Source of the DNA: a virus
Taxonomy: Duplodnaviria > Heunggongvirae > Uroviricota > Caudoviricetes
Direction: 5' to 3' (one strand)
Virus record (IMG/VR): IMGVR_UViG_2562617113_000015
Coordinates: 1-30,093 of that record
Length of the DNA: 30,093 nt
A program made the position numbers and the translations under genes. Positions 4,410 through 6,530 of the stretch are shown here, piece after piece. The stretch's first letter is position 1. Each line of letters opens with the position of its first letter. The notes under the pieces were generated by a model that saw only the letters and a list, made by a program, of their open reading frames with translations, was not told the origin of the DNA and searched no databases.

Positions 4410-4523
4410 TTATCTCCCATATGCTTTGCGCAAATACAGGTTGGCTATATGAAGATAAGAATCTCCATGTTGTGCAATGAGGCAGGCAGTTTTATACGAT
4501 GCCTTATGTTTCAGGAAAGTCAT
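4410..4523 (-). CDS. Possible small basic protein (37 aa: MTFLKHKASYKTACLIAQHGDSYLHIANLYLRKAYGR)
   Basis: Read by eye; AGGAG RBS 8 nt upstream of the ATG at 4523; stop lies 4 nt before the start of the next gene. Confidence 0.25.
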   Translation of the reverse strand: MTFLKHKASYKTACLIAQHGDSYLHIANLYLRKAYGR

Positions 4524-4601
4524 AACATAATCTCCTGCGAATAAAGGTTGCAACAATCCCCGGCGATAAAACCGTAATAAACATTCAGTGAATATTTATT
4601 G

Positions 4602-4802
4602 TTATTGCGCTAATTCTTTTTTGACTGCAGCTTTCGAATATTCACATGCAAAAGACAGGATTTCATCACCTAATGTTTTTGCATTCTGATTATTTGACAT
4701 CTGTAAAACTTGCGCAGCGCACAACAGACTATGAATGTTTATTGCAAATGAATCCGATGCCAGACAAATACCTTCGAAATTGTCATGGATATTACTATTC
4801 AC
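4602..4802 (-). CDS. Small protein (66 aa) paralogous to the N-terminal domain of the adjacent HTH protein
   Basis: GTG start with AAGGAG RBS; segment DSFAINIHSLLCAAQVL...ILSFACEY aligns with DSFALNIANLLSAVRTF...VMEFIHEY of the upstream gene. Confidence 0.55.
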   Translation of the reverse strand: MNSNIHDNFEGICLASDSFAINIHSLLCAAQVLQMSNNQNAKTLGDEILSFACEYSKAAVKKELAQ

Positions 4803-4807
4803 TGCTG

Positions 4808-5260
4808 TTACTCCTTTGCAGCATTGCTACCAGTCAATAACCACATCGGATCGCAGCCAAGAATATTTGCCAGTGGGATAAGCATACTGATGGTTGGTTC
4901 ATACTCTCCGCTCTCCCACTGGATGATGATTTCTTCATCAAGAGCGAGCAGCCTGGCGAGTTCGGCTGTTGTTAAGCCGCAGGCTTCGCGTTGGGTGCGA
5001 AGGTTAACCAGCCAGCTTTCAGGGAAGGATTGTTTTTGTTGTGCAGGAGAAGCAGCAGATAGAGCATATTCATGGATAAATTCCATTACCTCAATGCCCA
5101 GTTCCTTTGAGCGAGCACAATCCAGAAGATGGAATGTGCGTACAGCACTTAGCAAATTTGCAATATTTAATGCAAAGGAATCAAGTTCTAAGCCCTTAAG
5201 CGTAACACAGCCGCAGTTGATAAAATTAGTTGTTTCTGGAGTTGCTTTTAGTGTCTTCAT
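4808..5260 (-). CDS. Two-domain protein (150 aa): unknown N-terminal domain plus C-terminal Cro/C1-type (XRE) HTH
   Basis: C-terminal GLTTAELARLLALDEEIIIQWESGEYEPTISMLIPLANILGCDPMWLL is a typical XRE HTH; first gene downstream of the PL-like promoter. Confidence 0.75.
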   Translation of the reverse strand: MKTLKATPETTNFINCGCVTLKGLELDSFALNIANLLSAVRTFHLLDCARSKELGIEVMEFIHEYALSAASPAQQKQSFPESWLVNLRTQREACGLTTAELARLLALDEEIIIQWESGEYEPTISMLIPLANILGCDPMWLLTGSNAAKE

Positions 5261-5290: not shown

Positions 5291-5342
5291 ATCAAGTTAT
5301 AATTGATGGTGCGATATTATGCTTTGGGAAATAGGCTGTCAA
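5291..5342 (-). promoter_or_regulatory. PL-like leftward promoter with OL operator
   Basis: Minus strand reads TTGACA-N17-TAATAT (-35 at 5337-5342, -10 at 5314-5319); perfect 17-bp palindrome ATCAAGTTATAATTGAT at 5291-5307 at the predicted start site; the ATCAAG half-site recurs in OR. Confidence 0.5.
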
Positions 5343-5370
5343 GAAAAAATTGATATCGTATATTTCAGGC

Positions 5371-5397
5371 AGAAAAAAAACGGGCAAAGCCCGTTAA
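5371..5397 (-). terminator. Rho-independent terminator downstream of the cI-like gene
   Basis: 7-bp stem (AACGGGC / GCCCGTT) with a 3-nt loop, followed on the minus strand by a U8 run; sits 10-30 nt after the cI stop. Confidence 0.65.
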
Positions 5398-5406
5398 AAT
5401 CAAAGA

Positions 5407-6096
5407 CTAACCAAATCTGTTTATGTTGAATGGTACTGATGAGATCACTTTAGACTGGATATAAAGCAGAGCTAACCCCTCTTTTTCGATGCTCCATGGT
5501 TGATAATTGGGGTTATCAGATAACACCATGATTTTGCTTCCAATTTTTTGAAGCCTTTTCACGTAGCATTCTCCATCAAAACAAAATGCATAAATACCAT
5601 CGCCATCAAAATAAGTTACTGTCTTATCAAGAAAAAGAAGGTCGCCAGGTGAGATTGTGGGAGCCATACTGTCTCCTCTGGCGTTACCTATTTCTATATT
5701 TTTGAATGCCCGATTTCCAACAAGACGTCGGGCATATTCAGGATCAAGTTCTATTGAGCGCACTACATCTATCAAGTCACCACGGACATGAGTTCCATCA
5801 CCGCAACTAAACTCAACATCAAGGACATTAAACACGACGCTATCTGTTCTTGTCTGGTGTTTCTCTTGCGAGGAAAAGGTTGGTGAGGAGTCTTCACCTA
5901 AGAACCAGGATTGTGGATAACCGCTAATCTCTGATAAATGCGCGAGCTTATCACTCCGTGGAAATGTTTTTCCTGTTGTCCAGTACTGCACTGATTGCGC
6001 ACTCACACCTAACTTGCGGGCCAGTTGAGCCTGAGTCCATCCTTTTGCTTTCAGCATCGCGGCTATTCGATTTTCCGTGTTTTTGACGTTCTTCAT
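5407..6096 (-). CDS. cI: CI-like prophage repressor (229 aa): N-terminal HTH plus C-terminal S24 (LexA-like) autopeptidase domain
   Basis: N-terminal HTH (GWTQAQLARKLGVSAQSVQYW); C-terminal G-D-S-M serine motif and a downstream lysine, as in LexA/CI; divergent from the cro-like gene. Confidence 0.9.
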   Translation of the reverse strand: MKNVKNTENRIAAMLKAKGWTQAQLARKLGVSAQSVQYWTTGKTFPRSDKLAHLSEISGYPQSWFLGEDSSPTFSSQEKHQTRTDSVVFNVLDVEFSCGDGTHVRGDLIDVVRSIELDPEYARRLVGNRAFKNIEIGNARGDSMAPTISPGDLLFLDKTVTYFDGDGIYAFCFDGECYVKRLQKIGSKIMVLSDNPNYQPWSIEKEGLALLYIQSKVISSVPFNINRFG

Positions 6097-6229
6097 GACC
6101 AGGTCCTGTGGGTTTCTTTACAAGGATAAATCTTTACTTGATTTTAGTGTATTCGATCCTTTTGCAACTTGCATGTTAATTTAATCTTGATGTATTCTTG
6201 TGTTATCAAGTTAATATTGGTGTTTTGCT
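6097..6229. promoter_or_regulatory. OR-like immunity region with divergent PRM/PR promoters and operator half-sites
   Basis: Intergenic region between divergent cI and cro; ATCAAG/CTTGAT half-sites at 6138-6143, 6186-6191 and 6205-6210; candidate PR is TTGATG-N18-TTAATA (6187-6216); exact -35/-10 assignments are uncertain. Confidence 0.55.
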
Positions 6230-6530
6230 ATGAAAGGAAATGATTACGACGTACTTCGCGCATTAATTGCGCAAAATGCCATTGCACGAAACCTTGGTGT
6301 AACTCCGCAAGCGGTGAATCAGTGGTTTTCCAAAAAACACAATTCCTGCTCGTTTTGTTTTACGCGTATGTGAAGTAGTTGCATGGAAGGTCACGCCACA
6401 TGGCTTAAGGCCAGATCTTTATCCTCACCCTGAAGATGGAATTCCTGATTCGTTACGCAAAATTTCAAATCCAAGCCTAGCGCGCACGGAAGATGGGCAG
6501 AGTGATTCATCAGAAATGTCCACGCGATGA
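6230..6530 (+). pseudogene. cro: Cro/YdaS-like regulator, frame-disrupted at an A6 run (6332-6337)
   Basis: The ATG frame gives an HTH (LGVTPQAVNQWFSK) and stops at 6371-6373 after ...HNSCSFCFTRM; the +1 frame continues TIPARFVLRVCEVVAWKVTPHGLRPDLYPHPEDG... to a stop at 6528-6530, matching the C-terminal pattern of YdaS-type Cro proteins. Confidence 0.55.

Follow-up and report, generated by a model that had tools for sequence, protein, structure and literature searches.

A phage helix-turn-helix protein and a free paralogue of its N-terminal hairpin, first behind a PL-like promoter in a phiP27-like prophage

SinI binds SinR through residues that are conserved between the two proteins and thereby abolishes DNA binding (PMC3163267), and H-NST is a truncated paralogue of H-NS (PMC3897749). 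Here we analyzed a phage gene pair for which an original prediction had proposed a comparable arrangement, a DNA-binding regulator followed by a built-in antagonist. The pair lies in IMG/VR record IMGVR_UViG_2562617113_000015, a 30,093-nucleotide (nt) stretch of Caudoviricetes DNA to which we refer as the window, in an early region that belongs to a phiP27-like lambdoid E. coli prophage. It consists of a gene for a 150-amino-acid (aa) protein, in which a predicted two-helix hairpin is joined to a helix-turn-helix (HTH) domain of the XRE (Cro/C1) type, and a gene for a 66-aa protein that corresponds to the hairpin alone. The observation was confirmed, including the coordinates, start codon, ribosome binding site and map position, which were all correct by the open reading frame (ORF) list and by inspection of the sequence; its interpretation was partly supported. 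On the minus strand the order is cI-like gene, terminator, leftward (PL)-like promoter with operators, 150-aa gene and 66-aa GTG gene, and the parts of the pair are:

4808-5260, minus strand: 150-aa gene (ATG start), encoding an N-terminal hairpin domain, a linker and one acidic XRE/Cro-C1-type HTH; PHROG 4836 at 8e-77.
5054-5227, minus strand: aa 12-69 of the 150-aa protein, the hairpin domain and the region homologous to the 66-aa protein; helices 26-45 and 49-69 follow a conserved extended motif.
4823-5011, minus strand: XRE-type HTH domain, covering aa 84-146 and almost unchanged throughout the family, with a net charge of -6 and an isoelectric point (pI) of 4.1.
4602-4802, minus strand: 66-aa gene (GTG start), encoding a free acidic two-helix hairpin with helices 16-34 and 39-65; PHROG 4587 at 4e-31.
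4811-4816, minus strand: Shine-Dalgarno sequence AAGGAG of the 66-aa gene, 8 nt ahead of its GTG and still within the final codons of the 150-aa ORF.

As had been claimed, the 66-aa protein shares homology with the N-terminal domain of its neighbor, overall with residues 23-69. By BLASTP, residues 27-69 of the 150-aa protein align without gaps to residues 17-59 of the 66-aa protein with 17 identities in 43 positions (40%; E=1e-8), and the PHROG 4587 profile matches the N-terminal domain of the 150-aa protein as well (3e-7). The significance of the pairwise alignment holds under shuffling, with a Smith-Waterman score of 81 against a shuffled mean of 25±4.6 and none of 5000 shuffles reaching 81 (highest, 56; Gumbel p∼6e-8). 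AlphaFold2 (AF2) predicted a two-helix hairpin in both homologous regions, in the form of a long antiparallel helix pair. The rest of the longer protein also fits its earlier description as an uncharacterized domain joined to a Cro/C1-type HTH: Pfam HTH_3 matches aa 87-141 (E=8.6e-10; 39 bits against a cut-off of 23), the Pfam matches above or near the cut-off are to XRE-type HTH families only, and the N-terminal part has no match in Pfam or NCBIfam. The AF2 model of this protein (predicted local distance difference test score, pLDDT, of 71.8) comprises the hairpin (∼80), a low-confidence linker and a five-helix domain with the XRE fold.

One alternative is that the 66-aa ORF is spurious or not expressed, for which its GTG start and its absence from the RefSeq/PGAP annotation of NZ_CP076272 (99.9% identical over the aligned 1.8 kb; locus L001, 6007-6407) could be cited. 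This is highly improbable. The ratio of nonsynonymous to synonymous substitution rates (dN/dS) against diverged homologs is 0.16-0.32 where dS is saturated (>1), as under purifying selection, and E. coli, Citrobacter and other Enterobacterales retain its length and reading frame. Homologs are present in 24 phage records, and they are annotated in many Shiga toxin (Stx) phage records and left without annotation in others. The GTG has the good ribosome binding site that had been noted, a strong Shine-Dalgarno sequence at the correct spacing, and the AF2 fold is confident (pLDDT 85.5). On these sequence features we treat the ORF as a real gene. That the pair might be one gene split by a frameshift was also rejected, as the ORFs are in different frames and the 230-aa relatives of the longer protein owe their length to a second HTH domain. 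Only 5 nt separate the TAA of the 150-aa gene from the GTG of the 66-aa gene, the promoter scan found no promoter between them in the window, and the two genes are predicted to be translationally coupled there.

The position of the pair first behind a PL-like promoter with a palindromic operator was borne out by the promoter scan, by the repeat families and by the cI gene upstream:

5407-6096, minus strand: cI-like repressor gene, 229 aa; Pfam Peptidase_S24 at 4e-17 and HTH_3 at 4.9e-8; PHROG 4 (“transcriptional repressor”) at 9e-54.
5379-5395, minus strand: intrinsic terminator after cI, a G+C-rich hairpin AACGGGCTTTGCCCGTT and then a T-run, found by the terminator scan.
5314-5342, minus strand: PL-like sigma-70 promoter, with -35 TTGACA at 5337-5342, a 17-nt spacer and -10 TAATAT at 5314-5319.
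5291-5307, unstranded: operator-like site, the perfect palindrome ATCAAGTTATAATTGAT, immediately past the -10; repeat families D3/D4.
5339-5354, unstranded: second operator-like site TCAAGAAAAAATTGAT, overlapping the -35; repeat family D3.
4576-4600, minus strand: AT-rich hairpin with an 11-bp stem, starting 2 nt past the 66-aa stop and followed by UUUUAU; fold -11.3 kcal/mol, z -1.86.

In the promoter scan the promoter has 10 of 12 consensus matches, and because the region shows no excess of promoter-like sites (4 found, 6.6 expected) its assignment as PL rests on position and operators. The operator-like sites are of the ATCAA-N7-TTGAT type, with a related copy in the PR region (6205-6221), and the promoter and palindromes appear to form a PL/OL (leftward promoter and operator) arrangement. 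The cI-like repressor defines the immunity type with which the N-terminal hairpin of the next gene co-varies. Beyond the pair, the AT-rich hairpin could act as a weak terminator at the end of a two-gene immediate-early unit; the other locus types do not conserve it. A palindrome after the 66-aa stop, AAACATTCAGTGAATATTT, was considered as a conserved target of the HTH and rejected, being present in only 9 of the 96 loci compared below.

Proteins with this hairpin form a small family. A hairpin profile (alignment A5) searched against 1.84 billion representative proteins returned only 64 clusters at E≤1e-3, found in (pro)phages including Stx1/Stx2 phages and phiP27, and all named members are from Enterobacterales (E. 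coli, Salmonella, Citrobacter, Klebsiella aerogenes, Enterobacter, Yokenella and Serratia). Some members are free proteins of 58-91 aa and others form the C-terminal half of ∼121-aa L08-type proteins. The association with XRE domains is otherwise near-exclusive, since in all 10 of the longer members scanned with Pfam the hairpin lies N-terminal to one, two or three HTH_3 domains. Hairpins of this class (class A) share the pattern [FY]-x-G-[LIF]-x-[LM]...P-x-[DE]-[AS]-[FL] before helix 1; within helix 1 an Asn-Ile pair and an Ala are conserved, and within helix 2 a Tyr. The hairpin has no match in Pfam, NCBIfam, PADLOC, PDB sequences, Foldseek-PDB or BFVD; by fold, the best Foldseek hit in the PDB had E=3, and the PDB profile search returned only designed helical proteins. 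The literature searched held nothing relevant on phiP27 L08/L10 or on an equivalent characterized pair, and no interaction data. The 121-aa proteins (PHROG 5451, the C-terminal half of which is also matched by the 66-aa protein) occur in phiP27 (L08), PhiR49_2 and others (L002, 4203-4568; L006, 2890-3255; L010, 3648-4013), and carry a conserved, uncharacterized N-terminal extension of ∼53 aa. Both PHROG 4587 and PHROG 5451 are labelled “unknown function”.

We rank first, tentatively, the reading that the two proteins associate through their hairpins, either in the manner of SinR and SinI or as an obligate heteromer, because they share a fold, the hairpin is near-exclusively associated with XRE domains, and the genes are adjacent and coupled. 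The hairpin would then be a protein-protein association module; by eye, apolar residues make up about half of its helix residues, more than a lone two-helix hairpin would bury. In the 150-aa protein, which has only 4 residues after the HTH domain (aa 147-150) and no other candidate dimerization element, a single XRE-fold domain could plausibly self-associate only through the surface of the hairpin. Through that surface, a co-translated free hairpin could enter mixed complexes with proteins that bear a hairpin, here its neighbor, and such complexes would change the oligomeric state and activity of those proteins. The outcome might be antagonism of a DNA-binding protein rather than an obligate heteromer, and the two proteins would be the first products once the cI-controlled leftward promoter fires.

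To place the pair in its family, we compared 96 loci that encode the conserved HTH and clustered their N-terminal domains, upstream repressors and downstream hairpin ORFs separately; the loci are phylogenetically redundant, and the counts are thus descriptive and not independent trials. The association between genes of the 150-aa type and free-hairpin genes is strong, with a class-A free hairpin ORF ≤1.5 kb downstream in 90 of the 96 loci and the usual order (repressor, hairpin-HTH, free hairpin or hairpins) kept. Of the six remaining loci, two lie on truncated contigs, three are of a single type and one has an insertion sequence (IS) insertion. In locus L086, IS3-like transposase ORFs directly follow the HTH gene, the usual place of the free hairpin.

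Several results nevertheless weigh against a matched regulator and antagonist, as do some of the departures from SinR/SinI described at the end. The type of free hairpin is independent of the type of fused hairpin (Fisher p=0.23 for 90 loci; 0.15 with class-A N-terminal types): the kind found in the window (type 0) lies behind N-terminal types 0, 1, 2, 3, 5 and 6, and type 1 lies behind types 0, 2, 3 and 4. At the 33 phiP27 L10-type loci the N-terminal domain has no detectable similarity to the free hairpin, and 32 of the 33 carry type 0. The fusion occurs without a free hairpin in three loci, and in a locus of the Klebsiella aerogenes type (L018, 3501-4148) a free 68-aa hairpin is first at PL without a fusion. 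The coupling of the two genes also leaves the putative antagonist without separate control in the window. Across the family, these patterns suggest that the free hairpin is a separately assorting module and not a co-evolved partner. Thus the original description of the pair holds locally, in that the free hairpin of the window belongs to the subgroup closest to its neighbor's N-terminal domain; a built-in partnership with that domain is not supported family-wide. The broader proposal of a regulator with a built-in antagonist retains the paralogy, the position, the hairpin modules and the SinR/SinI precedent, and is not supported with respect to matched partnership or separate control.

Independent assortment is what would be expected if there were no direct interplay at all, the free hairpin being an independently mobile early gene (for host takeover, for example) whose similarity to the fused one records a past fusion or fission. 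Also consistent with this explanation, which we consider possible but somewhat unlikely, are a gene spacing that varies among loci from 0 to ∼720 nt with insertions, a mosaic junction exactly at the gene boundary in the comparison with PhiR49_2, the presence of the hairpin as the C-terminal half of the 121-aa L08-type proteins, and arrays of different small helical ORFs (two or three after the fusion in L013 and L016, others after the free hairpin in L018). However, the hairpin-XRE association and the adjacency in 90 of 96 loci exceed what would be expected of unrelated functions, and the genes are tightly coupled in the window and overlap by 4 nt in some relatives. Among these small ORFs, a 63-aa helical type, the MKTPLNIL type (PHROG 6882), lies beside class-A hairpins in L013 (3461-3840) and L016 (4771-5147). 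Like the phiP27 L10-type N-terminal domains, with which it makes up class B, it has no detectable sequence similarity to the class-A hairpin. PHROG 27579, a 138-position profile, matches it over the first 63 positions of the profile, which hints that this type also has fused relatives.

The label of DNA-binding regulator was upheld as far as the HTH domain is concerned, and DNA binding itself is uncertain. The HTH domain is acidic across all seven N-terminal types (net charge -5 to -8, pI 4.1-4.5), as is the 150-aa protein overall (net -8, pI 4.8), compared with basic HTH domains in the cI of the window (+5, pI 9.9) and in P22 C2 (+5). In the HMMER alignment, D108-E109-E110 align with S-N-V of P22 C2 at the start of the recognition helix, positions that we take to be base-contacting, judging from the P22 C2 and 434 operator complexes. 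The domain thus has neither the polar or basic start of the recognition helix nor the non-acidic DNA-facing surface of DNA-binding members. Because the domain is strongly acidic and has Asp-Glu-Glu at the start of this helix, DNA binding by the single-HTH allele appears doubtful, and the abolition of DNA binding may not be the relevant output of any mixed complex. Both points belong with those that weigh against the association reading in its SinR/SinI-like form.

The same domain is under strong constraint. The most common allele of the N-terminal type in the window encodes 230 aa with two tandem HTH domains, and the window carries a short single-HTH allele, the HTH of which resembles HTH1 up to “LGCDP” and the end of HTH2 beyond that point. 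The HTH1 core is almost invariant among proteins with N-terminal domains of unrelated sequence (dN/dS ∼0.03); because dN is 0.01-0.07 while dS reaches 1.4, this invariance points to selection and not only to recent exchange. In relatives with two or three HTH domains the extra domains are more basic (net -2 to +3), like those of ordinary DNA binders. A Salmonella prophage (L016, 2462-4502) encodes a 333-aa hairpin protein with three tandem HTH domains, and in this locus a 293-aa gene on the opposite strand, with a weak BRCT match, lies between cI and the PL gene.

Across the 96 loci, the type of the N-terminal domain corresponds 1:1 to the type of the repressor, in seven types with 44, 33, 8, 5, 3, 2 and 1 loci. 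By its sequence type, the fused hairpin belongs to the immunity module. The correspondence could reflect pure linkage or functional coupling to cI or Cro. Linkage could account for it because the hairpin abuts the immunity-specific OL/PL and the next homology competent for recombination is the HTH.

A functional origin would suit a model in which the hairpins bind targets rather than themselves and the long protein is an adaptor or anti-repressor and not a DNA-binding regulator. The fused hairpin would read its own cI or Cro, the invariant partner of the acidic XRE domain would be a host protein or else a basic surface that binds DNA, and the free acidic hairpins would engage different targets or compete for shared ones. 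We regard this model as possible but somewhat unlikely, as we do the absence of direct interplay, and rank it after association through the hairpins. It accounts for the acidity of the HTH domain (D-E-E in place of S-N-V) and of the free hairpins (all with pI 4.1-5.1), for the co-variation with cI, and for L018, where a free hairpin holds the first PL position without any HTH; the extreme purifying selection on the HTH core is also in its favor. On the other hand, simple linkage predicts the co-variation equally well, the partners are hypothetical, acidic HTH domains can still bind DNA, and the extra HTH domains of the longer relatives have the look of ordinary DNA binders.

An extension of this model is a new class of early switch factor, in which an immunity-specific hairpin that reads its own cI or Cro is fused to an invariant, non-DNA-binding acidic XRE domain that engages a conserved partner of the host or the phage, and free paralogues compete with it. 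We consider it improbable as a whole. In that case competition within one phage and between co-resident heteroimmune prophages would tune the commitment to induction of Stx-converting and phiP27-like phages. One IMG genome (2562617057) contains two prophages of N-terminal types 0 and 1 with near-identical free hairpins (L028 and L080), which could be a setting for cross-talk. We retain association through the hairpins as the tentatively favored reading.

The setting of the locus and three neighboring observations complete its description. The 1.8 kb around the pair is 99.9% identical to a prophage of strain E21845/O/A adjoining mlrA/yehW, and related early regions are found in phiP27, PhiR49_2 and many Stx1a-, Stx2a- and Stx2d-converting phages. 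A cro-like gene (YdaS/P22_Cro-type; 6230-6530, plus strand) is frameshifted in the window, with a break near 6335; its product has 47 aa, compared with 99 aa in NZ_CP076272, and the remainder continues in the +1 frame; either the prophage is cro-defective or the sequence contains an error. Between the 66-aa gene and a 62-aa gene lies a 48-aa ORF (4410-4556, minus strand) with an annotated 37-aa homolog in PhiR49_2 (KTACLIAQ...LRKAYGR) and no PHROG match.

Other identities were considered for the two proteins and set aside. PHROG 4836 carries the label “CII-like regulator”, but the 150-aa protein has no match to Pfam Phage_CII at E≤1 and its gene lies to the left of cI; TTGCGCAA, considered as a CII-like site, is not enriched (2 found, 1.4 expected). 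A type II toxin-antitoxin system with an XRE antitoxin was rejected, given that NCBIfam and PADLOC gave only sub-threshold generic HTH matches and that the neighbor is a paralogue and not a member of a toxin family; PADLOC likewise gave no matches that support membership in a defense system. A ribbon-helix-helix fold had been considered for the hairpin protein on account of a beta-alpha-alpha-like layout and was rejected as well; there was no match to Pfam ribbon-helix-helix families and none in Foldseek, and both the protein (net -3) and its relatives (-3 to -9) are acidic.

We conclude that the pair belongs to an uncharacterized, Enterobacterales-restricted early-gene module of Stx-type and phiP27-type prophages. 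The module would be the first product when cI releases the leftward promoter in widespread prophages of E. coli, Salmonella and Klebsiella, a group that includes phages converting their hosts to Stx1a, Stx2a and Stx2d production, and its parts are without a described function. Three of its features stand out: an invariant yet acidic XRE domain, a perfect linkage between fused hairpin and cI, and freely assorting hairpin paralogues. Should the free hairpin prove to modulate the HTH protein, or the fused hairpin to read the phage's own immunity type, the module would add a new layer to the lysis-lysogeny switch of toxin-converting phages and a possible route for cross-talk among co-resident prophages; if the two are unrelated early genes, it would come down to one more case of domains shuffled within a mosaic region.

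Among described systems, lambda N and HK022 Nun occupy the same first position behind PL, and the immunity-linked part of the window protein varies between heteroimmune phages. N and Nun are basic, arginine-rich RNA-binding proteins. An N-type antiterminator was rejected for the 150-aa protein, which is acidic, XRE-folded and without a match to Pfam N. TP901-1 MOR with CI, paratox Prx with ComR, and arbitrium AimX with its repressor are cases of small early phage proteins that bind XRE HTH proteins, and the HTH chains of MOR-CI, Prx-ComR and AimX-type systems are among the structural neighbors of the window HTH; however, none of these small proteins is paralogous to part of the protein it binds, and no similarity to the hairpin was found. 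The logic of H-NS/H-NST and of the eukaryotic microProteins (Id, LITTLE ZIPPER), in which truncated paralogues poison oligomerization, is the same, and H-NST also resembles the free hairpin in that a mobile element encodes a separate copy of an interaction domain (PMC3897749, PMC7074111). This comparison is an analogy only, as H-NST acts on a host protein and not on the product of its neighbor, and folds and targets are unrelated.

SinR/SinI of Bacillus subtilis, of which SlrR/SlrA are paralogues, is the closest system in its workings, although the pair differs from it in several respects. There is no match to Pfam SinI at E≤1 and none to the Sin family by PDB profile or Foldseek. The hairpin precedes the HTH, the reverse of the SinR order, and its helices are longer. 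As judged on the window, the small gene follows the large one and is coupled to it, with no separate regulation; at other loci there are spacers of 150-720 nt. The hairpin types do not co-vary as specific partners would, and the HTH is acidic. The likeness lies in the architecture: in both systems the long partner combines an XRE HTH with a two-helix element, the homology of the small partner is confined to that element, and the window pair would work most like SinR and SinI.

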